Below, piece after piece: positions 1,467-22,326 of a stretch of DNA of 26,689 bases. The position numbers and the translations under genes are program-made. The notes below the pieces were generated by a model. That model did not search any database and had not been told where the DNA came from. It saw only the letters and a list, made by a program, of their open reading frames with translations. The stretch is from positions 1 to 26,689 of the forward strand of contig CBFDBF010000001.1 in assembly GCA_965602975.1 (NCBI GenBank). Reading direction: 5' to 3'. Position 1 is the stretch's first letter; each line of letters opens with the position of its first letter. Source of the DNA: an uncultured Gammaproteobacteria bacterium (GTDB taxonomy: Bacteria; Pseudomonadota; Gammaproteobacteria; Chromatiales; Chromatiaceae).

Positions 1467-3734
1467 ATGGGTAAGCTGATTAAATTTATCGCTTGGCTGC
1501 TGGGTGTTGTTCTACTACTGATTATAGTGGCAGTTATTGTTCTGCCGATGGTGTTTGACCCAAATGATTTTAAGGATCAGGTTGTGGCACAGGTTGAGAA
1601 GCAGACCGGCCGCACCATGCAGATCGATGGTGATCTTGGGCTTTCGGTGTTTCCATGGATAGCTGTGGATATCGGCAAGTTTACGCTGGGAAACGCTGAG
1701 GGTTTTGGTGAGCAGCCATTCGCTGCAGCCAATAGTGCGGCTGTTCGGGTCAAGCTGATGCCACTACTACAGCGGGAGCTGGAGGTGGATACCATCGGTC
1801 TGGATGGGGTGTTGCTGAATCTGGCAAAGGCCAAGGATGGGCGCACCAAATGGGCCGATCTAAGGGGTGACACTGCAGCCACGGCCGCAGAAGATGGTGG
1901 TGACAAGGCCGCAGCAGATCAGGGAGAGGGGCTGAACAGGCTAGCCATTGGTGGGGTTGATATTAGTGATGGCCGGGTGGTCTGGGATGATCAACAGAGT
2001 GGTCAGAGGTTTGAGATTGACCAGTTGAACCTGAAGAGTGGTGCTATTGTGCCGGGTAGTCCGGTTGGGCTGGAGATGGGGCTGTTGCTAAAGAGTAGTG
2101 CTCCTCAGTTGGAGTCCAGGCTGGATCTGGAGGGGACGGTAGAGCTGGATGATGAGGTGACTACGCTTAAGATAGGTGACTTGAAGCTGGCGGTTGATGC
2201 CACGGGAGAGGCGGTTCCACGGGGCAAATTGAAGGCGAAGCTGGAGACGGCACTTGCTATGGCGCTGGATGGTAGCTCACTCTCTATCAAGGGTCTCAGG
2301 CTCTCTTCGGGTGACCTCTTGTTGAGTGGTGATGTAGAGGGAAAAAATCTCGCTGCTACCCCAGCATTTAGCGGTGCCATCAAGTTGGCTCCAATCAACC
2401 TGCGTAGCTGGATGGCAAGTCAGGGGATGAGCGTGCCGGATACGGCAGATCCTAAGGCGCTAACCCAGTTCTCTGCCGATCTAAGTATGCAAGCCGAGGG
2501 GGAGAGTACTCGATTTGATAGGGTCTCTATAATGTTGGATGACACCAATATAAATGGTAGTGCCAGTTTGACTGGTGGGGTCATCGGTTTTGCCTTGAAG
2601 GCGGATACGATAGATCTTGATCGCTATCTGGCACCGGAGAGCGAGGGAGAGCCAGCGGCGGCAGCCAAAGGTGGAGGCGGTAGTGGTAGTGGTAGTGGTG
2701 GGGGTAAGGGTAAGGGTAAGGGTAAGGGTAAGGGTGAGGGTGAGGGTGAGGAGCTGTTTCCTGTTGAGATGCTGCGAGGCCTCAATCTGAATGGAACTAT
2801 TACTATCGGTAAAATGATAGTAAACAAGCTGCTGGCAGAGAGTGTCAAAGTGACGCTGAAGGGTAGCAATGGCCGGCTAAACATTAGTCAGAAGGTTGGC
2901 AGTTTTTATCAGGGAAGCTACCAGGGGGCAGTGGCACTCAATGTTAGGGGCAAGACGCCAACTATGACTATCGACAGTGCTATGAGCGGCATCCAGGCTG
3001 GGCCGCTGTTGAAACAGCTAACGGATGAGGAGCGCCTGACCGGCAAGGGGCGGTTCAAGGCTAAATTGAATGCTAGTGGTAATAGTGTGGCGCAGATCAA
3101 GCGCACCCTTGGAGGTAATCTGGACTTTCGGTTTGAAAATGGTGCCGTTAAGGGGGTCAATCTAGCGCAGGTTATTCGTGATGCCAAGGCGCTATTTAAG
3201 GGTGAAAAGGCGGTTAAGTCGGACGATGACCAGCAGACTGATTTCTCTGAACTTAGCGGTAGTGGGGTTATTAAACGGGGGGTTCTGACCAATCGTGATC
3301 TGCTGATGAAGTCCCCCTATATGCGGGTTAATGGTGCTGGTAGTGTCAGCATGGTGTCAGAGAAGCTTGACTATGATCTGGGTACCACCATCGTAAATAG
3401 TGCTGCCGGGCAGGGGGGGGAGGAGCTGGAAGATCTAGAAGGGGTGTTGATTCCGGTACATCTCTCTGGCCCCTATTCCGATCCAAAGTACAGCGTTGAT
3501 TGGGGCAAGATACTGGTAGATAGTCAGAAAGAGAAGCTGAAGGAGAAGTTCAAGGATAAGTTGTTGGACAAGCTAGGTGGCGGTAAAAAGGAGGCGGCAG
3601 CACCTCAGGATGGGGTGAGTACGGATGCGGCTAGTACGGATACAAACACTCCCGCTGAGCCTGTAGAGAAGCCGAGTGCCGAAGATGAGTTAAAGCAGAA
3701 GCTGAAGGATAAGTTGAAGGGATTTAAGTTTTAG
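1467..3734 (+). CDS. asmA: AsmA family protein
   Basis: N-terminal anchor then FDPNDFKDQVVAQVEKQTGRTMQIDGDLGLSVFPWIAV (AsmA N-terminus); C-terminal GAVKGVNLAQ...TDFSELSGS...NRDLLMKSPYMRVNGAG. GGAGG RBS at 1457-1461 supports ATG 1467 over 1455. Confidence 0.88.
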   Translation: MGKLIKFIAWLLGVVLLLIIVAVIVLPMVFDPNDFKDQVVAQVEKQTGRTMQIDGDLGLSVFPWIAVDIGKFTLGNAEGFGEQPFAAANSAAVRVKLMPLLQRELEVDTIGLDGVLLNLAKAKDGRTKWADLRGDTAATAAEDGGDKAAADQGEGLNRLAIGGVDISDGRVVWDDQQSGQRFEIDQLNLKSGAIVPGSPVGLEMGLLLKSSAPQLESRLDLEGTVELDDEVTTLKIGDLKLAVDATGEAVPRGKLKAKLETALAMALDGSSLSIKGLRLSSGDLLLSGDVEGKNLAATPAFSGAIKLAPINLRSWMASQGMSVPDTADPKALTQFSADLSMQAEGESTRFDRVSIMLDDTNINGSASLTGGVIGFALKADTIDLDRYLAPESEGEPAAAAKGGGGSGSGSGGGKGKGKGKGKGEGEGEELFPVEMLRGLNLNGTITIGKMIVNKLLAESVKVTLKGSNGRLNISQKVGSFYQGSYQGAVALNVRGKTPTMTIDSAMSGIQAGPLLKQLTDEERLTGKGRFKAKLNASGNSVAQIKRTLGGNLDFRFENGAVKGVNLAQVIRDAKALFKGEKAVKSDDDQQTDFSELSGSGVIKRGVLTNRDLLMKSPYMRVNGAGSVSMVSEKLDYDLGTTIVNSAAGQGGEELEDLEGVLIPVHLSGPYSDPKYSVDWGKILVDSQKEKLKEKFKDKLLDKLGGGKKEAAAPQDGVSTDAASTDTNTPAEPVEKPSAEDELKQKLKDKLKGFKF
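2679..2750 (+). repeat. In-frame hexanucleotide tandem repeats within asmA: (GGTAGT)3, (GGTAAG)5, (GGTGAG)3
   Basis: Read directly: GGTAGT x3 at 2679-2696, GGTAAG x5 at 2703-2732, GGTGAG x3 at 2733-2750; encodes GSGSGSGGGKGKGKGKGKGEGEGE. Confidence 0.95.
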
Positions 3735-5178: not shown

Positions 5179-5439
5179 GTGGGTAGAACAGTACAGTGTG
5201 TTAAGCTGGGGCAGGAGGCCGCGGGCTTAGAGCGCCCTCCATATCCGGGTGATTTGGGGCAGCGGATCTTTGAGCAGGTCTCGGCAGAGGCGTGGCAGCT
5301 TTGGGTGCAGCAGCAGACCATTTTGATCAATGAGAATCGCCTTAGCCCGATTGAACCAAAGACACGAGAGTTTCTGGAGGGTGAGATGGAGCAGTTCCTG
5401 TTTGGCTCCGGCAACCATCAGGATGAGGCTTCAGAGTAG
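5179..5439 (+). CDS. yggX: Oxidative damage protection / Fe(II) trafficking protein YggX
   Basis: RTVQCVKLGQEAAGLERPPYPGDLGQRIFEQVSAEAWQLW...QTILINENRL...EMEQFLF signature; GTG at 5179 with GGAGG at 5168-5172. Confidence 0.92.
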   Translation: MGRTVQCVKLGQEAAGLERPPYPGDLGQRIFEQVSAEAWQLWVQQQTILINENRLSPIEPKTREFLEGEMEQFLFGSGNHQDEASE

Positions 5440-5446
5440 ATTCTGC

Positions 5447-5475
5447 TTGACTATATCGGCCATGGCCGCTTTAAT
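5447..5475 (+). promoter_or_regulatory. Sigma70-type promoter for tRNA-Phe
   Basis: TTGACT (5447-5452), 17 bp spacer, TTTAAT (5470-5475), 15 bp upstream of the tRNA. Confidence 0.7.
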
Positions 5476-5490
5476 GTGGCTCTCTTTTTT

Positions 5491-5566
<76 letters not shown>

Positions 5567-5603
5567 TATTTTTCTTATTTTTGTGTGTAGCTCTGGCTTC
5601 TAC

Positions 5604-7016
5604 ATGAGACACAGCAAGACTCTCCTTTATATATTTCTGGTTATCGCCACAGTTAGTGCGCCACTCCAGGCTGGGGTGATGCACTCTAATGGTGGCCGCT
5701 CCATTATGGCAGTACCTCTCTTGGCCGTATCTGGTACTGCGGCTATGTCTGATGAATCTGTACAGCTAATGCTGCACGACAGAGAGCAGCGTTACTGGTA
5801 TTGGCTGGTGGTGGGAGCCATTATGCTTATATCTATGCTGCTGTTGATCTTGCGGGTGTTGTGGCTGAACAGGCAGCTGAAGCGCTCTAAGCTCTATCTG
5901 GAGAGGCAGTATGAGTTGATTTTGAATTCGGTGGCAGATGGGATCTATGGGGTAGATAGGGAGGGAAATTCAACCTTTGTGAATCGTGCCATGGAGAAGA
6001 TAACCGGCTGGAAGGCGGAGGAGTTGATAGGGCGTAATCAGCATGAGCTGCTGCACCACAGCCATGCCGATGGTAGGCCACACCTACCAGAGGAGTGTCC
6101 GATCTATCTTACTGCACAGGAGAACCGGGCGCGGTTTGTGACCGATGATCTATTTTGGAGAAAGGATCATTCCAGTTTTCCGGTAGAGTACAGCAGTACC
6201 CCGATTCGGAATGAGAGGGGGAGTGCGACGGGTAGCGTAGTGGTGTTTAGAGATATTAGTGCGCGTCAGCAGGTGGAGGATGCGGCGCGGCAGCATCAGA
6301 TGGAGTTGGCTCACGTAGCGCGTCTGAGCACTATGGGGGAGATGGCATCAGGTATTGCACATGAGATCAATCAGCCACTTACGGCCATTACCACCAATGC
6401 ACAGGCCGGTGTGCGCATGTTGGAATCGGAAGCGGTAGATCCAGAAAAGGTGTTGGATCTACTGGAGCTAATCGGGAGACAGGCGGAGCGTGCCGGCGAG
6501 ATTATACGGCAGCTGCGCCGGTTCGTGCGCAAGGAGCAGTTGGAGCTTACCTTAGTAGACCTGAACGATTTGGTGCGTGAGGTGGTTGTGCTGCTGCAGC
6601 CAGAGGCGAAGAGTGCAGCGGTCGATATCAGTTTAGAGCTGGATGATGCCATTGGCCTGGTTGCAGTGCAACAGATTCAGATTGAGCAGGTTGTCCTCAA
6701 TCTTGCTCGCAATGCCATCGAGGCGATGGCTACAATGGATGCGGGTACGCGTGAGTTAACTCTACGCACCTCCGTCGGAGGCAGCAATGCAGTTATTGTC
6801 TCAGTGGAGGATAGTGGCCCCGGACTTGATCAAGATGTTATGCAGAATCTGTTTGACCCATTTGTGACTACTAAGCCGGATGGAATGGGGCTAGGCTTAT
6901 CTATTAGCCAGGGGATTTTAGAGGCGCATCAAGGTAATATTTATGCTGATTCCAAGCATGGTAGAGGGGCACTGTTTCGATTTGTTCTTCCAGTAGCTAC
7001 TAAGGAGCAGTTGTGA
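5604..7016 (+). CDS. PAS-domain sensor histidine kinase (FixL/TtrS-like)
   Basis: TM helix (RYWYWLVVGAIML...), PAS (ILNSVADGIYGVD...FVNRA...LFWRKD.SSFPVEYSSTPI), H box GEMASGIAHEINQPL, N box QVVLNLARNAIEAM, DSGPG, FDPFVTTK, GMGLGLSIS. The start (5604 ATG vs 5583 GTG) is uncertain. Confidence 0.9.
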   Translation: MRHSKTLLYIFLVIATVSAPLQAGVMHSNGGRSIMAVPLLAVSGTAAMSDESVQLMLHDREQRYWYWLVVGAIMLISMLLLILRVLWLNRQLKRSKLYLERQYELILNSVADGIYGVDREGNSTFVNRAMEKITGWKAEELIGRNQHELLHHSHADGRPHLPEECPIYLTAQENRARFVTDDLFWRKDHSSFPVEYSSTPIRNERGSATGSVVVFRDISARQQVEDAARQHQMELAHVARLSTMGEMASGIAHEINQPLTAITTNAQAGVRMLESEAVDPEKVLDLLELIGRQAERAGEIIRQLRRFVRKEQLELTLVDLNDLVREVVVLLQPEAKSAAVDISLELDDAIGLVAVQQIQIEQVVLNLARNAIEAMATMDAGTRELTLRTSVGGSNAVIVSVEDSGPGLDQDVMQNLFDPFVTTKPDGMGLGLSISQGILEAHQGNIYADSKHGRGALFRFVLPVATKEQL

Positions 7017-7618
7017 CAGCAACAGTATTTATTATTGATGATGATCAGGATGTGCGCGATGCACTACAGCTGCTGATGGAGTCAGTAGGGCTGTCGGTAG
7101 AGTCATTCGCCTCGGCTCAGGAGTATCTGGATCAGTTTGAGCCGCAACGCTACGGCTGTTTGGTGTTGGATATACGTATGCCCGGTATGAGCGGCCTGGA
7201 GCTACAGGCTAGACTATCAGCAGAGCAGAGTCATCCACCTATTATCATAATGAGCGGGCATGGTGATATCCCCATGGCGGTACATGCAGTACAGGCTGGT
7301 GCCGCCGGATTTCTGGAGAAGCCCTGTAATGACCAGCTGTTGCTGGATAGTGTGCATCGCGCTCTGGAGCAGGATAGCAGACAGCGTGGTGCGGCCTCCC
7401 GTATCGCTGAAATAAGGGGGCGGTATGAGCAGTTGACCCCGCGTGAATTGGAGGTGATGGGGCAGGTGGTAAGCGGTAAAAGGAATAAGGTGATTGCGTC
7501 AGATCTTGGGGTGAGCCAGTCAACGGTAGAGGTTCACCGCTCCCGTGTTATGGAGAAGATGGGGGCCAAATCTATGTCGGATCTTATGCGTATGGTGATA
7601 GCGCTGGAAGAGTGTTAA
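7013..7618 (+). CDS. FixJ/TtrR-family response regulator (REC + LuxR HTH)
   Basis: IIDDD, LVLDIRMPGMSGLELQ, MSGHGDIPMAV, FLEKP, LTPRELEVM...NKVIASDLGVSQSTVEVHRSRVMEKM; GTG start overlaps the kinase stop (GTGA). Confidence 0.92.
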   Translation: MTATVFIIDDDQDVRDALQLLMESVGLSVESFASAQEYLDQFEPQRYGCLVLDIRMPGMSGLELQARLSAEQSHPPIIIMSGHGDIPMAVHAVQAGAAGFLEKPCNDQLLLDSVHRALEQDSRQRGAASRIAEIRGRYEQLTPRELEVMGQVVSGKRNKVIASDLGVSQSTVEVHRSRVMEKMGAKSMSDLMRMVIALEEC

Positions 7619-7657
7619 GCAGTCTGCTTGGCAGATAGTAGTGTTAGCTCTTTTGGG
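7387..7657 (+). repeat. Direct repeat copy 1: response regulator 3' end plus a decayed norD 3' end (on the minus strand)
   Basis: Aligns to 10732-10924 with about 19 mismatches over 193 aligned bases by manual count, plus a 78 bp segment (7508-7585) absent from copy 2. Confidence 0.92.
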
Positions 7658-7907
7658 CTCGGCCCGTGAGACGGGGGCGATATTAAATGACATGCGGATC
7701 AAGCAGGTTACAGGGGGAGCATTTAATGTCCGCCCAGCTGAGTGGTCACGAGCAGAACTCAACTCGGCATTAGGTAAAGTCATTAATGACTCAAATTGAA
7801 AATGTGTAATAGTGCGCATAGTTCTTGAATCTGTAAGACTCAGTCTGAATCGGTAATAAGTTTCGTAGCCTTTAGACCGCAGAGCATTTTTCTATTTTCC
7901 GATAAAG

Positions 7908-8160
7908 GCCGCGAGCATATTTCTTTTGCTTGCCCAAAAGAAAACAGGCGAAAGAAAAGGACACCCTGGTATTACACCCTACGGGTACCCTGTGCTTCTT
8001 GTTTTAAGCGGGGCTATCCATAAGGGGCGTCCTGCCCCAATGGACAGGATCGATATCCCTGTCGGTCCCCTTCGGGCCATTTCCGCATATATGATTAAAA
8101 AATCGTGGTTTGTCCATTTTTAACTGCGATACTTGGTGTAACACACGGGATTCGGGGTGT
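7908..8160. repeat. Highly structured intergenic repeat / MITE-like element
   Basis: Hairpins TTTCTTTTG-CTTGCC-CAAAAGAAA (7920-7943), GGGGC-GTCCT-GCCCC and GACAGG...CCTGTC; long-range complementarity CCCTGGTATTACACC / GGTGTAACACACGGG. Resembles the widespread proteobacterial ...TTTCTTTTGCTTGCCCAAAAGAAA...AAAGAAAAGG.CACCC repeat type. Confidence 0.55.
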
Positions 8161-8204
8161 GCCCATAATTAATTATTGTATTGCGGAGAAAGGGATTGCT
8201 TGCA

Positions 8205-8278
8205 CTCTAATGAACTAGAGTAGAACATGTTACTGTATACCACTATATTCGCGCATGTCGTACAATTAGCTGTTAGGC
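8205..8278 (+). other. Possible degenerate attC-like site upstream of the persulfide dioxygenase gene
   Basis: CTCTAAT ... TAGAACATG / CATGTCGTA ... GTTAGGC (8272-8278); partial dyad symmetry over 74 bp ending in a GTTRRRY core 39 bp before the ATG. Weak. Confidence 0.3.
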
Positions 8279-8316
8279 AATAAAAAAATCTAAGCAAACC
8301 GGGACAAAGATATCTA

Positions 8317-9069
8317 ATGATATTTAAACAACTATTTGAAACGGATTCGTCTACCTTTACCTATCTGATAGCAGACAGCGATTCAGGCGCTGCTATTTTG
8401 ATTGATCCGGTGCTGGAAACGGCCGAACGCGATTTACAGGTTTTAAAGGACATGAATCTGACGCTTACCGCTACATTGGGAACGCATGTTCATGCCGACC
8501 ACTTGACCGGAGCCAGGTTACTGAAAGCTAAAACAGGTTGTAAAATTGCTTATCCTGCCATGGTGAAACATTCTTGTATTGATATCGGTATCAAGGAAGG
8601 AGAAGCATTCAAAGTTGGCAATATAGAGCTCAACCCATTGTTTACACCGGGACACACCGATCATCACCATGCCTATCTGATAGATACCCCGATACAGAAG
8701 TTACTGTTTACAGGCGATGCCTTATTGATTGAAGCCTGTGGTCGGACCGATTTTCAATCCGGTAGTGCAGAGGTTCTTTATAATAGTATTCATAATAAAA
8801 TTTTCTCTTTACCTGATGAAACGCTGGTATATCCTGGTCACGATTATGAAGGACGGTTTATCACGTCTGTGGCACAGGAAAAGGTACGTAACCCAAGGTT
8901 GGGTGGTGGTAAAAGCAAGCAGGAGTTCATTAAGATAATGGACGGGCTTGATTTACCTTATCCGCGAAAAATAGATTTTGCTGTGCCTGGCAACGAGCAG
9001 TGCGGAATCTGTCCAGACAATATACCGGACGAATTTAAAGGCAGTTGCGCCATTTACGATCAGGGATAA
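8317..9069 (+). CDS. MBL-fold persulfide (sulfur) dioxygenase, ETHE1/Sdo-like
   Basis: FKQLFETDSSTFTYLIAD, LIDPVLE, THVHADHLTG, TPGHT, FTGDALLIEACGRTDFQSG, LPDETLVYPGHDY, EKVRNPRL, LDLPYPRKID.AVPGN motifs characteristic of ETHE1-type enzymes. Confidence 0.85.
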   Translation: MIFKQLFETDSSTFTYLIADSDSGAAILIDPVLETAERDLQVLKDMNLTLTATLGTHVHADHLTGARLLKAKTGCKIAYPAMVKHSCIDIGIKEGEAFKVGNIELNPLFTPGHTDHHHAYLIDTPIQKLLFTGDALLIEACGRTDFQSGSAEVLYNSIHNKIFSLPDETLVYPGHDYEGRFITSVAQEKVRNPRLGGGKSKQEFIKIMDGLDLPYPRKIDFAVPGNEQCGICPDNIPDEFKGSCAIYDQG

Positions 9070-9227
9070 AGAAAAAATTAAGAAGAATTAAGTGGTTAGC
9101 ATCCTTAACTGCCAGTCTATATTTAGAGTATCGTTTGATTTAAACGGGAAAATATCAGGGGTTGTCAGGTGGTAACGTTAATCAGTTACTCCATAAGGAT
9201 GCCGAAAAACAGCGCGGTGCTTGTTAA

Positions 9228-9327
9228 TTTTAACATTACACATGAAAAATGATGATGCCCCCTTTTATCGCGCATTTTTCGTTCTCTGCTCTCGCTATAA
9301 ACGCGTCGGTTACTGCTGGAGTTAGGC
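9228..9327 (+). other. Degenerate attC/attI-like site providing the 5' core of the methyltransferase cassette
   Basis: Ends in GTTAGGC (9321-9327), complementary to GCCTAAT at the end of the downstream gene; internal dyad TTTATCGCG/CGCTATAAA; left core (TTTTAAC) is imperfect. Confidence 0.4.
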
Positions 9328-9376
9328 TATGAGAGCACAAAGATGTTACACATGATATGGGGTTGCGAGAATCCAA

Positions 9377-9991
9377 ATGAATAAAAAAGATCACTGGGAA
9401 AATATCTATAAAGATAAGTCTCCTCTTGAAGTAAGCTGGCACCAAAAGAAGCCAACTATTTCACTGGCCCTCATCAAAAGGATCGCGCAGAATAATACTG
9501 ATTATATAATTGATGTTGGAGGTGGCGCCTCTACATTATCTGATTTTCTTCTAGAAGATGGGTTCAATAATGTAACTGTTCTTGATTTATCCTCTAATGC
9601 CCTTGCGCACACCAAGCAACGACTGGGGGATAAATCCACTTTTATAGAGTGGAAGGTAGAAGATGTAATGAACTTTGTGCCTACTCACAAATATGATATA
9701 TGGCATGACCGCGCAGTATTTCATTTTTTAACTGCTAAAGAAGATAGAGGGAAATACAAACAAGTATTAGAGTCGTCTATTAAGACAGGAGGTTGCGTAA
9801 TTATTGCTGCATTTTCAATTGGAGGACCCAAGAAATGTAGTGGCCTTGATATAGTTCAATATGATGCAGTAAAGCTAAAAAGTGAATTAGGTAATAACTT
9901 TACATTTATTGAAGAAAGGTATGAAAATCATATTACTCCTGCAAGTAAGGAGCAGAAATTCGGTTATTATATTTTCACTAAAAATGCCTAA
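9377..9991 (+). CDS. Class I SAM-dependent methyltransferase (gene cassette)
   Basis: HWENIY...VSW, motif I IIDVGGGAS, VLDLS, YDIWHDRAVFHFL. About 30-32% GC in sampled lines. Stop codon lies inside the attC R'' core. Confidence 0.88.
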   Translation: MNKKDHWENIYKDKSPLEVSWHQKKPTISLALIKRIAQNNTDYIIDVGGGASTLSDFLLEDGFNNVTVLDLSSNALAHTKQRLGDKSTFIEWKVEDVMNFVPTHKYDIWHDRAVFHFLTAKEDRGKYKQVLESSIKTGGCVIIAAFSIGGPKKCSGLDIVQYDAVKLKSELGNNFTFIEERYENHITPASKEQKFGYYIFTKNA

Positions 9992-10074
9992 TAAGAAAAT
10001 TAAGTCGTTCGCTGCGCTCACTGAGACTCCGTAAAGCGGCACTGAACTAGCACCCCTTGTTTATAATGTTATGC
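9986..10074 (+). other. attC site (integron cassette recombination site), 89 bp
   Basis: R'' GCCTAAT (9986-9992), L'' AAATTAAG, central GTCGTTCGCTGCGCTCACTGAGAC, L' CTTGTTT, 5 bp spacer, R' GTTATGC (10068-10074). L''/L' pair with one extrahelical base. Confidence 0.75.
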
Positions 10075-10098
10075 TTTAAAAATACGAGAACAAAAATT

Positions 10099-10488
10099 AT
10101 GAATATCCCAATGGTCATAGCAGGTGCATTATCACTACTAGCATTTTTTGCTCATGCATTTGTAGGCGATAAGGAATACGGGGTATTGAAACCAGAGACG
10201 GAAGCCCCTTCAAAAAATAAAGAAACTTGGGTGCAAGTAAGAAGCGGTTGGCATTGGGTTAGCGTAGACTTATTACTTTCAGGTGTTGTTCTGCTATTAA
10301 TGGCAACAACTGAGATTATAAAAGCAAAAACAGAAATATCCTTACTCCTAAGCATTTACTTTTTTGTTTGTGGTATTGTTTGGCTTGGTACTGTTTTACT
10401 ATCTAAAAGTGATAACAAACAAATTCTAGTTGTGGGTCAGTGGATTTTCTGTTTTCTCATGAGCGGTCTTATCTATGCTGGAACATAA
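10099..10488 (+). CDS. Hypothetical integral membrane protein (about 4 TM helices), second gene cassette
   Basis: 129 aa with four hydrophobic segments; ATG 10099 lies just after the GTTATGC core and the gene is followed by the complementary core GCATAAC. Confidence 0.75.
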   Translation: MNIPMVIAGALSLLAFFAHAFVGDKEYGVLKPETEAPSKNKETWVQVRSGWHWVSVDLLLSGVVLLLMATTEIIKAKTEISLLLSIYFFVCGIVWLGTVLLSKSDNKQILVVGQWIFCFLMSGLIYAGT

Positions 10489-10492
10489 GTAA

Positions 10493-10519
10493 GCATAACA
10501 AGCGACTGTGGCATCAACC
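10493..10519 (+). other. Left half of an attC site, truncated by an IS3-family insertion
   Basis: GCATAAC (10493-10499) is the exact reverse complement of GTTATGC (10068-10074), followed by AAGCGACTGTGGCATCAACC and then an IS end. Confidence 0.6.
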
Positions 10520-10690
10520 TGAACCTCCCCCGATAAAACGGACACTAACTTCTAATAGGAGAGTGTTTGATGCCAAGATACAACCAACCGAGAAAGACTT
10601 GGAGATACATAGAAGAATTTAAAGCAGGCAGTACAGCTAAGCTATTTAGATGGCATACAAGTAAAAGAGGTTGCGGAGACACCGATGCTT
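10520..10690 (+). mobile_element. IS3-family remnant: left end plus frameshifted, truncated orfA
   Basis: TG-initial end TGAACCTCCCCCGATAAAACGGACAC; RBS AGGAGAG; ATG 10570 MPRYNQPRKTWRYIEEFKA, continuing after a frameshift as AVQLSYLDGIQVKEVAET (HTH-type OrfA). No orfB or right end in view. Confidence 0.7.
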
Positions 10691-10731
10691 AAGTTCATGT
10701 GTTTGACGTCAGGTGTCGCAAAGACAAAAAA

Positions 10732-10885
10732 TGGTGAGGCCTCCCGTATCGCTGAAATAAGGGGGCGGCATGAGCAGTTGCCCCCGCGTGAATTGGAGGT
10801 GGTGGGGCAGGTGGTACGTGGTAAAAGAAATAAGATGATTGTGTCAGATCTTATGCGTATGGCGATAGCGCTGGAGGGGTGTTAA
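10732..10885 (+). pseudogene. Fragment of the FixJ/TtrR-like regulator C-terminus with a 26-codon in-frame deletion in the HTH
   Basis: EASRIAEIRGRHEQLPPRELEVVGQVVRGKRNKMIVSDL|MRMAIALEGC versus the intact gene; GVSQSTVEVHRSRVMEKMGAKSMSDL is missing. Confidence 0.88.
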
Positions 10886-10924
10886 GCAGTTAGCTTGGCA
10901 TAGAGCAGTGGTAGCTCTCTTGGG
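10732..10924 (+). repeat. Direct repeat copy 2: decayed response regulator 3' end plus the functional norD 3' end
   Basis: See copy 1; ends at ...GCTCTCTTGGG (10924), matching ...GCTCTTTTGGG (7657). Confidence 0.92.
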
Positions 10925-12714
10925 AGCTGGGATGGTTTGTGGATAAGCACATAGTTACCGCTGCCAAAGAGGTAGGGGAGATAGTCATTTCCACGACGAT
11001 CAATGGTTACACAGAAGGGTTGCAGGCCGAGTTGTCGGGCCGCATTGACCGCCTGCCGAGTATCTTCTATACCGTAACGCCCCTCATACTGATCCAGGTC
11101 ATTAGGTTTTCCATCGGTCAAAATTAGTAGCAGGCGTCGGCTTGCAGGCTGCTCGGTGAGTAGATTGGCACCGTGGCGGATGGCTGCCCCCATCCGGGTG
11201 TAGTATCCAGGTTTGATGGCGTTGATACGACCACGTATGTCGGCACTATAGCGCTCCTGAAAGGTTTTTATCTGATGAAAGCGGATCGGATCCCGCTTGC
11301 GCGAGGAGAACCCATAGATAGCGAAGGGGTCACTGGTGGCGTCCAGGCTCTCCGCAAAGAGAAACAGGCTATCCTGTACCACATCTATAACGCGTCTCTG
11401 GTTGTTTATCCAGGAGTCGGTGGAGAGAGATAGATCGGCCAGTAGTAGACAGGCCAGATCCCTGGCGCCTACTCGTAGATCGCGGTAGAGATTGTCTGCT
11501 ACCGCCTGATAACCGGATGCACGGTCACTGGTAAAACGTAGATAGGCATCTAGATCAATCTCACACCCATCCTGCTGGCCACGGTACCAGATACGGGCTG
11601 GGGCCAACTGTTGAAATTGTGCTTTTAATTTCCTTGCTGTGTGGTTTAGGTGTTTTGGTAGCGCACATGGTACTGCATTAGCGGCGATCATCGGGAATAG
11701 GCGGCAGTGATCTGGCTGTAGAGACTGTTTTTTGTAGTCCCACTCGGGTAGAAAGATCCCCTCTCCCAGTATGCGGTCATCATTGGCTTCAGATGGCAGA
11801 TCGAGGTCAAAACGGAGTTGGCTGGCTGAGGATGCACCATCTCGAGTTATGCTCATTGTCTCCATATCATCCGCGGCATTGGCCGCACTCTCCAGATCCT
11901 CATCCTCCTCTGTGCCACGATCCAGCTTGATAAAATCGGCCCAGGTAAAAATAGTCTCCATACGCAGGGTGATCAGTCCACGATCCTCTGCTGCCTTCTC
12001 TGTCTGTTCAGCTTTGCGTCTGCGCTGGTCCTCTAGCTCTTGTGTAGGGCCGTTTCCGGTTGAGTCGCTCTTTTCATCAGATAGACCAGTATAGGGTGTG
12101 GCGGTTGGAGGTGATGGATGCAACCATAGCGGGACAGGTTGTGGCGCTTTATTAGCAGATGGTAGCAGCCCGTATGTTCCAGGTTGATGCAGAGCTGCGC
12201 ATATCGCCTGCGCCTGCAACGCCTCTGCCTTGGGCAGTTTTGCTGGGTCTATGCGTTGTTTTAGGTGTGCGGTTACCAAGCGTTCATAGCGGGGTTTAAT
12301 GCCGGGATAGTTTTTGAGTGTCTCCAGGGTTAGCCGTTGGTTTTTAGCGAACCACGCCTCTTCATCTCCTCTGTCACCTACTGCCATAGCGGCTAGCCAG
12401 AGATATAGGTCTCGATTGAGTGATCTGGTTGGAAAGCAGTCGATGGTGGCAGGAAGGCGGAGCGACAGCTCATCGCGCCATGCGAGTTCAACTTGTCGAT
12501 TGCTATCGGCAATCCGTTGTAGCCAGCTACGTCTGGCGTGGTGGTCGGTAGCGTTGGCAGCTTCAACCTGTAGCCCGCCGTCACCTCCAAGTGCACGGAA
12601 CAGTATGCCTACAGTGCGATTCACCTCTTGCAGGGAGACGCCAGCCTCTGGGTGACGGGTATCTGCTGCCCGGGTAATAAAGCGATCCCATATCTGTCCT
12701 ACATGCTCTTCCAT
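10882..12714 (-). CDS. norD: Nitric oxide reductase activation protein NorD (VWA domain)
   Basis: MEEHVGQIWDRFITRAA N-terminus, LPEWDY, QDGCEIDLDA, MIDAS LADLSLST, PGYYTRMGAAIRH, LTDGKPNDLDQYEGRYGIEDTR; in a nor cluster. Confidence 0.93.
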   Translation of the reverse strand: MEEHVGQIWDRFITRAADTRHPEAGVSLQEVNRTVGILFRALGGDGGLQVEAANATDHHARRSWLQRIADSNRQVELAWRDELSLRLPATIDCFPTRSLNRDLYLWLAAMAVGDRGDEEAWFAKNQRLTLETLKNYPGIKPRYERLVTAHLKQRIDPAKLPKAEALQAQAICAALHQPGTYGLLPSANKAPQPVPLWLHPSPPTATPYTGLSDEKSDSTGNGPTQELEDQRRRKAEQTEKAAEDRGLITLRMETIFTWADFIKLDRGTEEDEDLESAANAADDMETMSITRDGASSASQLRFDLDLPSEANDDRILGEGIFLPEWDYKKQSLQPDHCRLFPMIAANAVPCALPKHLNHTARKLKAQFQQLAPARIWYRGQQDGCEIDLDAYLRFTSDRASGYQAVADNLYRDLRVGARDLACLLLADLSLSTDSWINNQRRVIDVVQDSLFLFAESLDATSDPFAIYGFSSRKRDPIRFHQIKTFQERYSADIRGRINAIKPGYYTRMGAAIRHGANLLTEQPASRRLLLILTDGKPNDLDQYEGRYGIEDTRQAVNAARQLGLQPFCVTIDRRGNDYLPYLFGSGNYVLIHKPSQLPRELPLLYAKLTA

Positions 12715-12716
12715 GG

Positions 12717-12782
12717 CTATGGATCTGAGTGATTAAGGTTTGGTGTTATGGGGTAGACAGTGATGGTGTTATAACTGCTCAT
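12717..12782 (-). CDS. 21-aa mini-ORF (MSSYNTITVYPITPNLNHSDP) directly upstream of norD
   Basis: Strong AGGAGGT RBS before ATG 12782; TAG stop ends 2 nt before the norD ATG; overlaps the end of the upstream gene. Translation unproven. Confidence 0.3.
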   Translation of the reverse strand: MSSYNTITVYPITPNLNHSDP

Positions 12783-13161
12783 GGCTACCTCCTATCAGTG
12801 GGAAGTAGTACTTCTCTCCAGCTATTGCTTTAATCAGACCCAACAGTCCAGGAATGAGAGAAATTGGTACGACCACAATGAAATAGACCTCGAAAATAAT
12901 TAGTGCATATATGGAGTAGTATCCACCTAACAGGAGTATTAGTATATTGGCCGCTAAAAAGATTGCAGTAGTAATCAGGGCTGCAGTAAAGGCCTGACGC
13001 AGGTGATTGCGTACCAATGCCTCCTTATGTTTGCGGTGACGTAGATATATCCCGGTCAACAGCAGCATAGAGATAATTGGAAACAGCAGATTAAGCAGAT
13101 AGAGACCTTCACCTGTTATGGCGAGTCTATGCGTGGCTGGTTGTGTGGTGGTTGTAGTCAT
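12769..13161 (-). CDS. Small 3-TM membrane protein (DUF4870-like C-terminus) in the nor operon
   Basis: Three hydrophobic segments; C-terminal GLIKAIAGEKYYFPLIG resembles the DUF4870/Tic20-like signature; ATG overlaps the norQ stop (TGATG). Confidence 0.65.
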   Translation of the reverse strand: MTTTTTQPATHRLAITGEGLYLLNLLFPIISMLLLTGIYLRHRKHKEALVRNHLRQAFTAALITTAIFLAANILILLLGGYYSIYALIIFEVYFIVVVPISLIPGLLGLIKAIAGEKYYFPLIGGSHEQL

Positions 13162-13964
13162 CAGGTGCGGCCAAAAACTATATCTACCACCTCCATCAGC
13201 GCATTTGTTGTATCTTCATCATCGCTAAGAGGCTCTACTAAGGCGGCACGGCACGCCTCTAGGGGGTCATATCCACCTAGAATAAGGGTGGCAGCATATA
13301 CCAACAGACGGGTGGATGCTGCCTCTTCCAGATCATGATCTTTAAGCGCGCGCAGGGAGTTGGCGAGTGATACTAGTCGCTTGGCAAGTTGCGGTTCAAT
13401 ATCGGTCTCTCCTAGTAGAATCTCCACCTCTAGATCTGGTCTAGGAAAATTTAGCCGCTGAGCCACAAACCGCTGTCTGGTACTGGGCTTCATCCCCTTT
13501 AATAGATTTTGATATCCAGGGTTGTAGGAGACCACCAGCATAAATTCAGGTGGTGCATGTAAAATCTCACCGGTCCGTTCGATGGGCAGGATGCGTCGAT
13601 CATCGGTGAGTGGGTGGAGCACTACGGTAGTATCCTTACGCGCCTCTACCACCTCATCCAGATAACAGATAGCCCCTTCACGGACAGCACGGGTGAGTGG
13701 GCCATCATTCCAGAAGGTGTTGCCATCACCAATCAGGTGTCGCCCCACCAGATCTGCAGCAGTCAGGTCATCATGACAGGCCACAGTATAGACTGGGCGT
13801 CCTAGACGGGCTGCCATATGGTTAATGAATCTGGTCTTGCCACAGCCAGTAGGCCCCTTTATTAGCATCGGTAACTGGTGTTTATAGGCGTGTTCGAACA
13901 GAACAATCTCATTGCCCTGTGGTTTGTAGAAGGGTGGTTGATCAATACTGTTATGTGCGCTCAT
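13161..13964 (-). CDS. norQ: AAA+ ATPase NorQ (CbbQ/NirQ/NorQ family)
   Basis: LPMLIKGPTGCGKTRF (Walker A), CHDDLTAADLVGR, YLDEVVEAR (Walker B), SYNPGYQ, LKGMKPSTRQRF, EEAASTRLLVYA. Confidence 0.95.
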   Translation of the reverse strand: MSAHNSIDQPPFYKPQGNEIVLFEHAYKHQLPMLIKGPTGCGKTRFINHMAARLGRPVYTVACHDDLTAADLVGRHLIGDGNTFWNDGPLTRAVREGAICYLDEVVEARKDTTVVLHPLTDDRRILPIERTGEILHAPPEFMLVVSYNPGYQNLLKGMKPSTRQRFVAQRLNFPRPDLEVEILLGETDIEPQLAKRLVSLANSLRALKDHDLEEAASTRLLVYAATLILGGYDPLEACRAALVEPLSDDEDTTNALMEVVDIVFGRT

Positions 13965-13973
13965 GAGTAATCC

Positions 13974-14249
13974 TCAGCCTGCCAGATAAAACGCAGTTCC
14001 TATCATGATGCCGGGTATGAATAGCCAGATTATGACTGGCCAGCGCCACATCCCTCGTAGCCGTCCCAGCCCCATAAAATAGGCACCTACCAGTTCACCT
14101 TTGATGAGAGCTAATAGAAGCACAAATAGTGATGTTTTTATACCGCTTAATCCCATCTGTCCTATAAAGAAGGTTACACAAGTAAACGTGATAAGCAAGA
14201 TATAGACCCAGGTGCAGGGGCGGATCCCCATTGTTTTATTTACATTCAT
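13974..14249 (-). CDS. NorF-like / cytochrome c oxidase subunit IV-family small membrane protein
   Basis: Three TM helices with ...LALIKGELVGAYFMGL... motif; lies between a norE-like gene and norQ. The start could be 14231. Confidence 0.7.
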   Translation of the reverse strand: MNVNKTMGIRPCTWVYILLITFTCVTFFIGQMGLSGIKTSLFVLLLALIKGELVGAYFMGLGRLRGMWRWPVIIWLFIPGIMIGTAFYLAG

Positions 14250-14256
14250 ATTGCTA

Positions 14257-14850
14257 TCACCGCATTACATAAACTAGAGGGAAGAGGATTATCCATACCA
14301 GATCAACCATATGCCAGTAGGAGGCTCCAGTCTCCACTCCGGTATGATCTGTTGCACTGTATTTGCCACTTTTCGCCATGATGACAATGGCAGCAAGAAT
14401 TACCATGCCCATAATGACATGCATGAAATGGAAAAAGGTGAGAGAGAGATAGAACATGTAAAAGGCGTTGGTGCTGAGATTGATCCCTTCACCAAAATGG
14501 TGGGCATACTCCGCCGCCTTTACTGCCACGAAGAGAGCGCCCATGCCTATTGCGGCCAGTAGCCAACGTATACAGTGTTGCTGGTTATTTAATTTGATCG
14601 CCGCTACTGCTCGTACTACAAAATAGGAGCTGGTGATCAGCGCTATGGTATTGATTAGTGCGGCCTGACGATCCAAGTGTAGTTGGTGTTCATTAAATAG
14701 CTCTACGTTATTCATGCGGGTGAATGCATAGGCCGCAAAAAACAGAGCGAATACTAGAAGTTCAGCCAGGATGAAAACCCATATTGCCAGGTCTCCAGGT
14801 GGGTACCTGTCGGAGTGGTCATTAGTGGCTGTTGTGGCTTCGTTAGTCAT
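14257..14850 (-). CDS. norE: NorE-like cytochrome c oxidase subunit III family protein
   Basis: PPGDLAIWVFILAELLVF, NTIALITSSYFV, FYLSLTFFHFMHVIMG, ETGASYWHMVDLVWIILFPLVY (COX3 fold). Confidence 0.85.
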   Translation of the reverse strand: MTNEATTATNDHSDRYPPGDLAIWVFILAELLVFALFFAAYAFTRMNNVELFNEHQLHLDRQAALINTIALITSSYFVVRAVAAIKLNNQQHCIRWLLAAIGMGALFVAVKAAEYAHHFGEGINLSTNAFYMFYLSLTFFHFMHVIMGMVILAAIVIMAKSGKYSATDHTGVETGASYWHMVDLVWIILFPLVYVMR

Positions 14851-14955
14851 AGAAAAAGTATACCTAAAAAGGGGTATGCCCTTTATGTTTATCTTAGAGT
14901 TGCATCAAAATATACACGTTTGTTCTGGTTACGCACCTCTCCTGCTGTAGCTTAA

Positions 14956-15156
14956 GGCCATCCATGGCCTCTCGCGGCATACGACCGCCAGGGATGGTGG
15001 AAATGCAGAAAATGCCGGAGCGATTTTCTGTGAGCCCATCCCTCTTAGCATTCACCGCTTCGGCCGTTGCTCACGGCCATCCATAGCCTGCCGCAACACT
15101 TGTACATCCTGTACATCGTCCACGCGCCTCTCGCGGCATACAGCCCATCCCTGGGC
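14956..15156. repeat. Nested palindromic repeat cluster between norB and norE
   Basis: GGCCATCCAT(G/A)GCC at 14956 and 15075; GCCTCTCGCGGCATAC at 14967 and 15126; GCCCATCCCT at 15034 and 15143; hairpin CAGAAAAT/ATTTTCTG (15006-15030); tandem TGTACATC x2 (15101-15117). Confidence 0.8.
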
Positions 15157-15158
15157 AT

Positions 15159-15191
15159 AAAAAAAGGCGGGCACCTTGCAGTGCCGGCCTT
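15159..15191 (-). terminator. Intrinsic terminator after norB
   Basis: Minus strand AAGGCCGGCAC-TGCAAG-GTGCCCGCCTT running into a T tract (7 T total), 35 bp after the norB stop. Confidence 0.8.
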
Positions 15192-15225
15192 GAACAGGAG
15201 AAAACATTCTCCTGAGAGGGTTTAT

Positions 15226-16629
<1,404 letters not shown>

Positions 16630-17076
16630 TTAACCCTGATTATTGGGTGGCCAGTTTGCAGTGTTGATCTCTGATACATACTTTAAGAACTCAGCAATGG
16701 CTGCGAGCTCATCATCAGAGAAGTTGAACTGGGGCATACTACGGCGCCCAGGAATGCCGTTGACTGGGCGGGATTTAATAAATCCTGCAATAGCCTCTTT
16801 GGAACCACCGAAGCGGGTGTATACATTACCCAGCTCAGGTGCATAGTAGCCACCCTCTCCGAGCAGAGTGTGGCAGCCGATACAGTTGTTTTTTTCCCAT
16901 AGCGCCTTGCCTTGAGCAATTTGAGGGCCTAATTCTCCCTCAAGAGCTGCACGGTTGTCCCGACTTGGTAGCTGGTTAATCGTATCGAAGGTTAATGCAA
17001 GAAACAGTAAAAAGAAAAACGCGGTACCACCGTAGAAGATGTTCCGCGCCATAGATTTAGTAAAAGTTTGAGCCAT
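16630..17076 (-). CDS. norC: Nitric oxide reductase cytochrome c subunit NorC
   Basis: MAQTFTKSMARNIFYGG, TM anchor, WEKNNCIGCHTLLGEGGYYAPELG, GRRSMPQF, WPPN. GGGGGAG RBS supports ATG 17076 rather than 17109. Confidence 0.96.
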   Translation of the reverse strand: MAQTFTKSMARNIFYGGTAFFFLLFLALTFDTINQLPSRDNRAALEGELGPQIAQGKALWEKNNCIGCHTLLGEGGYYAPELGNVYTRFGGSKEAIAGFIKSRPVNGIPGRRSMPQFNFSDDELAAIAEFLKYVSEINTANWPPNNQG

Positions 17077-17143
17077 ATCAACTCCCCCGTTAGTATTGTG
17101 CCTCGGCACCTCGTATTAAACTCTGTCTGGTATGGTGCAGGCT

Positions 17144-17157
17144 TTGATCTATATCAA
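17144..17157. promoter_or_regulatory. FNR/DNR/NnrR-type binding site upstream of norC
   Basis: Perfect TTGAT-CTAT-ATCAA. A minus-strand -10 TTTAAT at 17120-17115 places the box near -41.5/-42.5 (class II geometry). Confidence 0.88.
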
Positions 17158-17199
17158 AAACCGGGATGGACCTTATCTTCGAAAAAATATAGTTGAAAC

Positions 17200-17448
17200 C
17201 ACTGCTGTCCCATTTAGCTGCGACACCATAAACATAACTTGTTGTTACATAGGCGCTTATTAGCACTGTTCTTTGTTTAGAACATCAAATGCAAATAAAG
17301 AGCATTCCTTCTCCCTCAGGGACCTCGGTACCCCCCTTGAGGGGTGGAAGGATAGGATGAGGGGGTAAATAAATCAAAGCCTTAGCTTTTTAAATCCCCT
17401 CACCCCAACCCTCTCCCGGAGGGAGGGGTAGTAAGTGGGACAGCAATG
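17200..17448. mobile_element. 249 bp MITE with 17 bp terminal inverted repeats and 9 bp target-site duplication
   Basis: Left TIR CACTGCTGTCCCATTTA (17200-17216), right TIR TAAGTGGGACAGCAATG (17432-17448; 15/17 match); flanking direct repeat AGTTGAAAC at 17191-17199 and 17449-17457; no ORF. Confidence 0.82.
17305..17428. repeat. REP-like CCCCTCACCCCAACCCTCTCCC inverted-repeat unit nested inside the MITE
   Basis: TCCTTC...GAAGGA and TGAGGGG (17358-17364) / CCCCTCA (17396-17402), followed by CCCTCTCCC-GGA-GGGAGGGG. Confidence 0.7.
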
Positions 17449-17608
17449 AGTTGAAACCCTTTTAAATTATATTGCTTAGCAGAATAATGGTGCATTTTAC
17501 AGCTGAATCAATGAGTTGTATTATGTAGCGCTATGGATTGCTGGCTCCGGATAATCGGTGTAGCAGGGGGGGGCAATTTTTAATAATATTTTGATAGTTG
17601 GTATAATT

Positions 17609-18451
17609 ATGGGTAATTTAAACAAATATCTATTAATAAATATTTTAATTAAATTTCCTGTTGGTTTTGGGTGGGCAGATACGGTGGAGGTGCAGTTACC
17701 GCCATCTACGTTATCTCAGTGGTATAAGCCACAGAGTGAACGCCAGCTTTGGCTGCATAATATGTTCAAGTTGCGGCGGGAGATGCAGGCAGTGCAAGAG
17801 TACAGTGCTATCAAGGATCAGCCACACTTGCAGAAATGGACAGTACGTTTAGTAAGCCACTACCAGAAGATTGCCGAGATGGTGCCAGAGTGGGAGGATG
17901 AGCTAGAGCTTGAGTGGGCAGAGAGGCTACTGCTTGCAGCAGAAAGAGGGGATTTCAGGCTCACGGATAAGGCGGTGCGCAAGATAGACGGGAGTTGCAA
18001 GTCATGCCATCGGGAGTATCGGGCAGTGGCTGCTGCTATGTATCGTACCCCTAACTTCCATGGGGTAAAAGTCAAAGATAGTGTTACTCTGCAGGAGTGG
18101 GAGTATGGCGAGTTTATGCAGACGCTTATCACCCTGGTTAATCAGGTCAAGATTGCATCTGAGGATGATCGGTTAAAGGAGTCTCTGCAGGCGTTATCCA
18201 GTCTTGAGGTACGACTACAGGAGTTGGGAGAGAGCTGTGTCTCTTGCCATAAGGATGATGCTTCCAGAGAGAGGATACTGGGGGCAGAGATGGTGCGGAA
18301 ACTGGGAGAGCTTAGGGTTAGCCTCTCATCTGGGGATAAAAAGATGGCAGGGCGTAAGTTGGGGGCTGTGGCAGTACTAACTTGTGCCAGTTGCCACGGT
18401 ACGCACCGTACACTCTATGATTTGAGAAATATACTTAACTCCGTGGATTAA
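17609..18451 (+). CDS. Tri-heme c-type cytochrome, predominantly helical (cytochrome c'-like heme motif context)
   Basis: Three CxxCH motifs: CKSCH (17996-18010), CVSCH (18236-18250), CASCH (18383-18397); probable N-terminal signal ending GWA-DT. The start (17609 ATG vs 17591 TTG) is uncertain. Confidence 0.8.
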   Translation: MGNLNKYLLINILIKFPVGFGWADTVEVQLPPSTLSQWYKPQSERQLWLHNMFKLRREMQAVQEYSAIKDQPHLQKWTVRLVSHYQKIAEMVPEWEDELELEWAERLLLAAERGDFRLTDKAVRKIDGSCKSCHREYRAVAAAMYRTPNFHGVKVKDSVTLQEWEYGEFMQTLITLVNQVKIASEDDRLKESLQALSSLEVRLQELGESCVSCHKDDASRERILGAEMVRKLGELRVSLSSGDKKMAGRKLGAVAVLTCASCHGTHRTLYDLRNILNSVD

Positions 18452-19008
18452 GGAGCCTGCTTGGTGCGTTCGCTCCAGGCTTGCATGGTTTTTGGATGGC
18501 TGTTCCATAGCCCTCGCTCTTGAGTCGCAGCCGACTTCTCGTGCTCTGTTAACTGCTGTTTGAGCTCGGTTGGCAGGGGGTATCTATTCAATACTACGGC
18601 AAACCCATCCTCTACCATCGCTTCGCTCAAGGGGCGGCCAGCAGGGCTATACAGTATTGTGGGGATACGGCCATATTTGTCATGCGGTTGAAGCCCCCCC
18701 TCCAGAGTTACCCTTTGGCCGGGTGAGACCATGGTCTCAAGGTGTCGAGTGGCCTCCTGGCCAAGGTCGATTAGTGTAGCACTGGTTAGTCCCGTTCTCT
18801 GCCTGTCTCGTTGCAGCTTTGGATTGCCCACACTTTCAGGAGCATCTATTCCCATCAACTGGAGACGCTCTGGTTGGCCATCTATCTCTACTACAATGGT
18901 GTCACCATCTTCAACACTGATAACCGGGTAGTCTAGTTCCTTGCATATGCCAAAAGGGGCGTTTAGCAGGAGAATAGTTGCTAATAGAGAGGTTGATAGA
19001 TTAAGCAT
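18448..19008 (-). CDS. Thermonuclease (SNase-like) family secreted protein
   Basis: Signal peptide, VISVEDGDTI, GIDAPES, DKYGR, EAMVEDGFAVV, A...ERGLW. Confidence 0.85.
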   Translation of the reverse strand: MLNLSTSLLATILLLNAPFGICKELDYPVISVEDGDTIVVEIDGQPERLQLMGIDAPESVGNPKLQRDRQRTGLTSATLIDLGQEATRHLETMVSPGQRVTLEGGLQPHDKYGRIPTILYSPAGRPLSEAMVEDGFAVVLNRYPLPTELKQQLTEHEKSAATQERGLWNSHPKTMQAWSERTKQAP

Positions 19009-19030
19009 AATTTTTTACTCGGTATGGTGT

Positions 19031-19219: not shown

Positions 19220-19281
19220 CGTGAACTCCTTGGTAACTGGCTTTTATACAGATGCATAGTGGTCGGTAGTGTCAAAAAGGC

Positions 19282-21634: not shown

Positions 21635-21690
21635 ACTATATCCGCCAACAACATTGTCGATATTAAAGCTTGTGTCATTACCACCGTTGA

Positions 21691-22221: not shown

Positions 22222-22326
22222 TATTATTTTACCCAATTATAGGGTACCTCTGTTAATTTGTATGTGGCGTCCATGGGTCACTAGACTCATTGAATAAAGC
22301 GGAAATCCCTTAAGTTTTCATAGGGT

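Follow-up and report, generated by a model that had tools for sequence, protein, structure and literature searches.

The prophage e14 of Escherichia coli lies in icd, flanked by icd itself and by icdC, a pseudogene of the icd 3' end (Hill et al. 1989, per PMC13626634), and recombination between the icd and icdC copies yields a chimeric gene (PMC13626634). Interchromatid integration during transformation has been shown experimentally to generate merodiploidy, in which an interval is directly duplicated and the novel joint carries donor DNA (Johnston et al. 2013, PMC3784515). Here, we compare with these systems an islet of foreign DNA that separates the converging ends of a response regulator gene and of norD in an uncultured gammaproteobacterium of the family Chromatiaceae. 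The DNA analyzed (hereafter the window) is 26,689 nt long and makes up one whole contig, C1 (CBFDBF010000001.1), of a metagenome-assembled genome (MAG), G000 (GCA_965602975.1; 1.9 Mb in 379 contigs, 85% complete). The islet is bracketed by a duplication of the regulator/norD junction, and the two copies have decayed reciprocally.

As in e14, foreign DNA lies here between two diverged copies of a gene 3' end, the direct repeats contain the 3' end of the target gene, and the functional gene is kept while the spare copy is a pseudogene. Unlike e14, where an integrase and a defined att core are present and a single gene end is duplicated, the islet yielded neither a recombinase nor a core; its repeat spans two converging gene ends, with each copy sustaining a different gene, and its inner edge is a microhomology joint inside an insertion sequence (IS). 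The likeness to merodiploidy is that donor DNA pairing at two points in the "wrong" order duplicates an interval and leaves donor sequence at the joint. That system, however, involves kilobase repeats (IS861 copies) and intervals of 100-900 kb (PMC3784515), whereas the islet repeat measures 0.27 kb and 4-5 nt of pairing are visible. The interior of the islet resembles both clusters of attC sites lacking integrases (CALIN) and insertions of IS into attC sites: it contains a pair of cassettes whose attC sites follow the pattern R'' xxTAAC ... R' GTTRRRY, an IS lies inside one attC, and there is no integrase. It differs in that both ends of the array fragment are truncated, in its position between two chromosomal genes, and in that its IS belongs to the IS3 family.

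The junction sequence occurred at exactly two places in the whole assembly, with no third. The left copy (7387-7657, no strand assigned; repeat search and whole-assembly search) is 271 nt long, and the right copy (10732-10924, likewise without strand) is 193 nt long and lacks 78 nt that are present in the left one. In the whole-assembly search, the direct repeat appeared as two blocks, 7387-7507 against 10732-10852 (93% identity, E = 1.4e-45) and 7575-7657 against 10842-10924 (87% identity, E = 2e-22). A gap-aware count gave 19 mismatches over 193 aligned nt (~10% divergence), the same figure as in an earlier note made from the letters of the window, which had described two copies that were about 90% identical. 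Mismatches were evenly spread, and the longest identical run between the copies was 31 nt (7393-7423). Each copy consists of the regulator 3' end, overlapping stops, and the norD 3' end, and this description, also given before, could be read directly in both sequences: GTGTTAAGCAGT is present in each, so that the regulator TAA and the norD stop (TTA on the plus strand) overlap by two bases (TTAA). One contiguous chromosomal interval is doubled, with foreign DNA exactly between the copies, and the converging gene ends now stand 3.1 kb apart. The single 78-nt deletion in the right copy is in frame, and its breakpoint can lie anywhere inside the imperfect repeat GTCAGATCTT / GTCGGATCTT; it is a slippage-type deletion flanked by microhomology.

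The left copy belongs to the intact response regulator (7013-7618, plus strand), a 201-amino-acid (aa) protein with REC and GerE (LuxR/FixJ-type helix-turn-helix [HTH]) domains in Pfam that is 87.5% identical, without gaps, to its orthologue in G002, the nearest species. The right copy belongs to the intact norD (10882-12714, minus strand; VWA domain), whose 610-aa product could be aligned with orthologues from end to end and terminates in HKPSQLPRELPLLYAKLTA; its last 27 residues, HKPSQLPRELPLLYAKLTA included, are identical to those of G010. The opposite tails are remnants. On translation, the norD 3' remnant in the left copy (7615-7657, minus strand) is 13 codons plus a stop, reading PKELTLLSAKQTA, and departs by P>T, Y>S and L>Q from the conserved motif LPLLYA.LTA, whose near-invariant P, Y and L each have no more than one exception among the 27 orthologues showing the C-terminus. 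Alignment to the left copy showed that the regulator 3' remnant in the right copy (10732-10885, plus strand) has lost the recognition part of the HTH. This tail carries at least six derived residues (T>P, M>V, V>M, A>V, V>A and E>G), the left copy matching G002 at each of them and further genera as well at most of them. The left regulator tail has one derived change (E>A), with two positions ambiguous. These outgroup comparisons confirmed the reciprocal decay that had been proposed, in that each copy preserves one gene while its other half has drifted.

We also used the divergence of the copies to place the duplication in time. In the regulator part, the 12 nucleotide differences fall 5/3/4 on codon positions 1/2/3 with no synonymous excess, which fits free drift of one copy after in-situ duplication. 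Between G000 and G002, the regulator gene has 1.13 synonymous (dS) and 0.08 nonsynonymous (dN) substitutions per site, while the regulator part of the repeat is consistent with some 0.06 neutral changes per site in the unconstrained copy, a value about one ninth as large as the per-lineage distance to G002. The duplication is therefore much younger than the split between the G000 and G002 species, although old enough for visible decay. Since the right copy is nearer to the left one (90% identical) than to the orthologue of the nearest species (77%), its source is this lineage.

At the inner edge of the right copy, the IS3 orfA consensus (...AARATYGTGGC) meets regulator sequence (...GCGTGGTGCGG / ...AGCGTGGTGCGGCC) at a shared GTGG (alignment A4), giving 4-5 nt of microhomology at about codon 54 of orfA and codon 125 of the regulator. 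This edge appears to be an illegitimate joint inside an IS, neither an element end nor an attachment site. It may be original, the incoming DNA having been broken inside the IS, or it may reflect a later deletion of the rest of the IS together with part of the regulator copy. Because the edge lies inside a truncated IS, 271 nt is a minimum, and the value of about 270 bp previously given for the length of the duplication is retained as a lower bound only. The left joint (7657/7658) abuts unmatched DNA with no recognizable element end. At 271 and 193 nt, and with no element end recognizable at either inner edge, the copies do not look like a transposon target duplication. No remnant of a tyrosine or serine recombinase was found in a Pfam scan of all listed islet open reading frames (ORFs) or, by eye, in the short frames of 7640-8330; one 84-aa stop-to-stop frame (7869-8123) was covered by the Pfam scan over 7926-8123 only. 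A weak Phage_integrase match (E = 0.055) on the ORF at 7520-7819 (minus strand) was rejected as an integrase remnant, being mostly regulator antisense. As had been remarked, the nearby tRNA-Phe(GAA) gene (5491-5566, plus strand; ARAGORN) is not used by the islet. In a self-comparison of the genome, no second gene-end duplication was found, and other nearby direct repeats were intergenic or at contig ends.

Between the copies, the GC content drops to 36-43%, compared to 51% genome-wide, in agreement with the view that this DNA is foreign. It did not, however, enter as the one unit that had been envisaged: the interior is made of pieces of different origin with truncated edges, and the islet is a mosaic with at least three truncation joints. 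Its leftmost piece (7658-7867, no strand assigned) is unique DNA, with a 16-nt-arm hairpin at 7674-7735, that matched nothing elsewhere in G000 or in the relatives and gave no Pfam family in the frames scanned except the spurious match already mentioned; Rfam gave nothing in 7500-11000 at E <= 1. There follows the 5' part of a dispersed repeat (7868 to ~8160, no strand assigned), truncated and with a 31-nt insert (alignment A2), of which many copies exist in the same-genus genomes G001-G006 and of which the copies within G000 are only ~81% alike. Next comes a gene for a metallo-beta-lactamase (MBL)-fold hydrolase (8317-9069, plus strand; Pfam Lactamase_B), with homologues named sulfur dioxygenase or glyoxylase-like. 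Over 8270-9065, it is 90.6% identical at the nucleotide level to a 41%-GC marine contig and 86% identical to 38%-GC contigs, with different neighbors, and relatives at 97-98% occur in two unrelated metagenomes (seawater and freshwater-sediment runs). Judging by these matches, the gene was acquired horizontally. At the protein level, relatives at 94% aa identity are present in many metagenomes, one cluster having 203 members, and lie in unrelated chromosomal contexts of organisms with 38-41% GC.

The right half of the interior derives from an integron cassette array. An attC site lacking its 5' (R'') part occupies 9271-9327 (plus strand); the remaining 3' two thirds, ending in GTTAGGC, are 85% identical to complete attC sites (GCCTAAC...GTTAGGC) carried by three genomes, G012 from the same family and G025 and G033 from other families of the class, and in the public sequencing run X2, the missing 5' part stands exactly ahead of position 9271. 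The first cassette (9321-10074, plus strand) encodes a predicted S-adenosylmethionine methyltransferase (ORF 9377-9991; Pfam) and has a degenerate attC (GCCTAAT...GTTATGC); in run X1, it stands behind a different attC. The second cassette (10068-10519, plus strand) encodes a small membrane protein (ORF to 10488), and its attC, which starts at 10493 (GCATAACAAG, GCATAAC...), is interrupted by the IS3 element. Integron gene cassettes are single ORFs bounded by attC sites with an inverse core (RYYYAAC) and a core (GTTRRRY), and the two here agree with this definition. No intI or attI was found in the window. Elsewhere in G000, an intI gene (C175:3341-4282, minus strand; TIGR02249, 468.9 bits against a cut-off of 265) starts 36 nt from a contig end, which implies an integron in the genome, with its attI and cassette array absent from the assembly; the islet cassettes may stem from it.

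The array is closed by the left end of an IS3-family element (10520-10731, plus strand), i.e., 212 nt of ~1.2 kb or more, comprising the left inverted repeat (TGAACC...) and ~54 frameshifted codons of orfA, which starts 50 nt in. Matches in G010 and G015 begin at or near 10520. Full-length relatives, gathered by pattern scan (L073, L080 and L084), have an inverted repeat beginning with TGA, an OrfA with HTH_Tnp_1 (1.8e-16), and an OrfB in a shifted frame with HTH_21 and rve (3.4e-20); the stump in the window reaches only E = 0.06 for HTH_Tnp_1, and no intact transposase lies between the repeats. Nearly every copy of this IS that was found (L048 from G010, L071-L074, L078, L080, L081 and L084) sits ~8-20 nt past an attC inverse-core-like xxTAACAAG, 18-27 nt from the core start (directly abutting the motif in G010), and the left end always faces the core. 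From this placement, the element seems to represent an IS3-family group that targets attC; IS known to target attC are those of the IS1111-attC group (IS110 family). The statement that no integrase is visible thus stands for site-specific recombinases in the islet, but the IS3 transposase stump, the attC sites and the dispersed repeat had been overlooked. The 66-aa ORF at 10685-10885 was rejected as a real gene, being a scrap of orfA fused in frame to the HTH-deleted regulator stump. For annotation, this ORF and the 13-codon norD tail are pseudogene scraps.

We then compared the locus by DNA and protein searches with 40 relatives, 80 genera of the family and the seven genomes of the genus set, i.e., G000 and six other species. 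Within the genus, only G000 of the seven genomes has norD, the sole other match being a 38%-identical VWA paralogue, and the best NorD in a collection of 5.8 billion proteins was 72% identical. Other genera of the family contributed 29 norD loci, one of which ends inside norD; at the remaining 28, no regulator was present within 1.5 kb past the norD 3' end. At three close homologues (P0002, P0004 and P0005; 71-72%), norD is followed by NapC-type cytochrome or chemoreceptor genes. An exact pattern across the junction had zero matches in metagenome and genome contigs. The empty site that had been predicted for relatives therefore did not turn up: their norD has other neighbors, and the relatives within the genus have no norD. 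As for the proposed ancestral abutment of regulator and norD, both copies do derive from one overlapping-stop junction, but no relative shows it.

The window is collinear with G002 from ~1457 to the regulator stop, except for 10.5 kb extra in G002 beside tRNA-Phe, and collinearity ends there. In G002, a 32-nt motif and an ORF of 319 aa follow ~36 nt past the regulator. In G000, the same motif and ORF are on another contig, C24, and are followed by nirS-type and related genes. The 32-nt motif (ACCATCTATCTTTGRTGGTAATTGATAATTGT) is 97% conserved upstream of the 319-aa ORF (L005 in G002, ~3360-3391; C24 in G000, ~7206-7237), and the intergenic DNA around it differs between the two genomes; it may be a candidate operator. 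From 12700 to 26689, dispersed repeats are all that the window has in common with the five same-genus genomes searched (G001-G005). All DNA to the right of the regulator stop belongs to a denitrification island peculiar to this genome within the genus, with a nor operon, molybdenum cofactor genes and nap genes in the window (7619-26689) and nirS-type genes on C24 (7130-11387). The island sits between the regulator and the 319-aa ORF, which are neighbors in G002. Since these two are adjacent in G002 and split in G000, norD adjoins the regulator only through the island.

We favor, with somewhat better than even confidence, a history of duplicative illegitimate recombination in situ and subsequent filling and trimming. 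The duplication, the polarity of decay, the mosaic content and the microhomology joint inside the IS are observed; in which order things happened, and by which recombination route, is inferred. The denitrification island would have come to lie directly after the regulator stop, placing regulator and norD tail to tail with overlapping stops (TTAA). At least 271 nt across this junction would then have been duplicated in place by recombination that was not site-specific, with microhomology joints. Incoming DNA may have been attached at a single point, with re-entry into the chromosome ~271 nt upstream; such a duplicative insertion could have proceeded through template switching, double illegitimate recombination, or donor integration that bridges two sister chromatids. 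Alternatively, a local and possibly longer tandem duplication may have arisen, with the novel joint filled later. The gap between the copies would have served as a neutral dump for the lineage-specific repeat, the foreign MBL gene and the cassette-array fragment with an IS3 element in attC, and would have suffered later deletions, while the redundant norD tail on the left and regulator tail on the right decayed. Because the genes have no spacer between them, only a duplication of both ends admits DNA without killing one gene; a non-duplicative insertion would truncate the regulator or norD, so that selection would have filtered for the duplicative outcome. Substantial donor homology at both pairing sites was not seen, the right joint showing 4-5 nt of microhomology only. 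The earlier claim that foreign DNA entered with a duplication of about 270 bp holds insofar as both genes were kept, but its form, a single entry with target duplication, is unsupported. Excision by homologous recombination, also suggested there, is possible in principle but a weak prospect, given a longest identical run of 31 nt and a divergence of 10%. A crossover to the left of the 78-nt deletion would leave a regulator without its DNA-binding recognition helix, and both genes would survive only if the crossover fell within the last ~70 nt; losing the islet in this way would be rare and mostly harmful.

Several points weigh against this favored history. An uninterrupted single regulator/norD junction was seen in none of the relatives or genus genomes, nor in the contig pattern scan, so the ancestral single junction would have to be deduced from the repeat itself. 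One-step and multi-step histories are indistinguishable. The norD-tail part of the repeat is more diverged than the regulator part (7/39 nt compared to 12/154 nt), a difference not significant at so few sites; it may be noise, or the copies may not be of one age. The left joint adjoins DNA of unmatched origin, where microhomology is not assessable. Lastly, the contiguity of the two copies comes from the assembly of a single MAG contig, and reads from public runs do not reach the junctions: only two runs contain 5% of the locus words, these cover relatives of the MBL gene and of the methyltransferase cassette, and on alignment of these two best-matching runs to the locus, no repeat junction was found.

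Among the alternatives, the two copies could be alleles of two strains brought together by homology-facilitated illegitimate recombination, which we consider rather unlikely. A donor whose regulator had been disrupted by cassettes, an IS3 element and a deletion would supply the islet, the regulator stump and norD, joining by homology in the nor region at the right end and illegitimately near the resident norD 3' end at the left. Known processes would account for the topology, the IS-interior joint would fit an older lesion in the donor, the higher norD-tail divergence would fit as well, and the nor region, being accessory, is probably exchanged. However, the third-position excess expected of two functional alleles is absent (5/3/4), which argues weakly against replacement; moreover, such a replacement needs either an illegitimate joint 39 nt from the end of the 1830-nt gene or later trimming, and a second strain or near relative was not found in the databases searched. 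It is quite improbable that a site-specific integrative element, or a Campbell-type circle carrying its own copy of the junction, created the islet and lost its recombinase later. Foreign DNA flanked by direct repeats of gene 3' ends, with the target genes whole, is the e14 architecture, and the polarity of decay is compatible with it, but the element would have to carry a junction that exists only in this lineage, its cargo is a patchwork, and the inner edge falls within an IS and is no att arm. In addition, the frames examined hold no recombinase remnant beyond the one weak Phage_integrase match that is mostly regulator antisense, and no identity core is visible (a longest run of 31 nt, with even mismatches), although decay could have erased one.

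A chimeric contig joining two strains or loci inside the islet seems very improbable, even though the bin is fragmented (379 contigs), the islet holds the kinds of sequence where assemblers err (a dispersed repeat, attC and IS), and close relatives of its genes occur in other organisms from this kind of sample. Copies at 10% divergence are not collapsible repeats, a misjoin at the dispersed repeat is unlikely when the own-genome copies are only ~81% alike, and the attC and the IS are truncated at the joints, where a misjoin predicts a full shared repeat; even in a misjoined contig, two decayed junction copies would exist in the community. The notion that a transposase or another dedicated enzyme made a target-site duplication of ~270 bp by widely staggered cuts is nearly refuted. 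The bare topology, direct target repeats around an insert, agrees with it, whereas the repeats meet no element ends (codon ~54 of IS3 orfA at the right edge, unmatched DNA at the left), an intact transposase is absent, and the genome self-comparison shows no second case. It is also highly improbable that an undescribed route or a decayed element inserts at converging junctions without spacer, duplicating hundreds of bases and restoring both ends; if it did, the islet would be its first scar. The locus is a known class of scar in a new form, from ordinary sloppy recombination, and no new kind of mobile element.

Upstream of the regulator lies its partner, a PAS histidine kinase (5583-7016, plus strand; Pfam PAS/HisKA/HATPase_c), which is collinear with G002. 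Opposite window positions 5418-5789, G002 has ~10.5 kb extra beside tRNA-Phe (L016, G002:C12 ~5300-15870) that are absent in G000, and the tRNA-Phe site is a separate variable spot. Past norD, the minus strand carries a DUF4870 gene, norQ (AAA_5 and CbbQ_C), a COX3-like gene, norB (COX1) and norC (cytochrome c), which with norD form a nor operon in the order norCB-norE-norQ-DUF4870-norD. NorD is here a VWA protein encoded with norQ and norCB and having the conserved C-terminus ELPLLYA.LTA; its nearest homologues are named NorD by their sources, and, by its named relatives, the family falls among sulfur oxidizers of the Sedimenticola/Thiodiazotropha type. The closest nor operons (71-72% NorD) have a Fer4_5 gene of ~325 aa between the DUF4870 gene and norD, which is missing in the window, where only 55 nt separate the two (12714-12769). 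Dispersed repeats with many copies in same-genus genomes lie between genes of the nor cluster at ~14967-15166 and ~17283-17465, which suggests that the island has been resident in a genome of the genus for some time.

The islet provides a natural example of how foreign DNA can lodge between genes that have no spacer, as the doubled ends create a neutral gap, and it shows duplication and subsequent complementary loss on a sub-genic scale. It also calls for caution in reading such loci: long direct repeats around an islet need not be the attachment sites of a mobile element, since the joints here point to illegitimate recombination with piecemeal filling and trimming. For this organism, it means that the nor genes belong to a recently remodeled accessory island.

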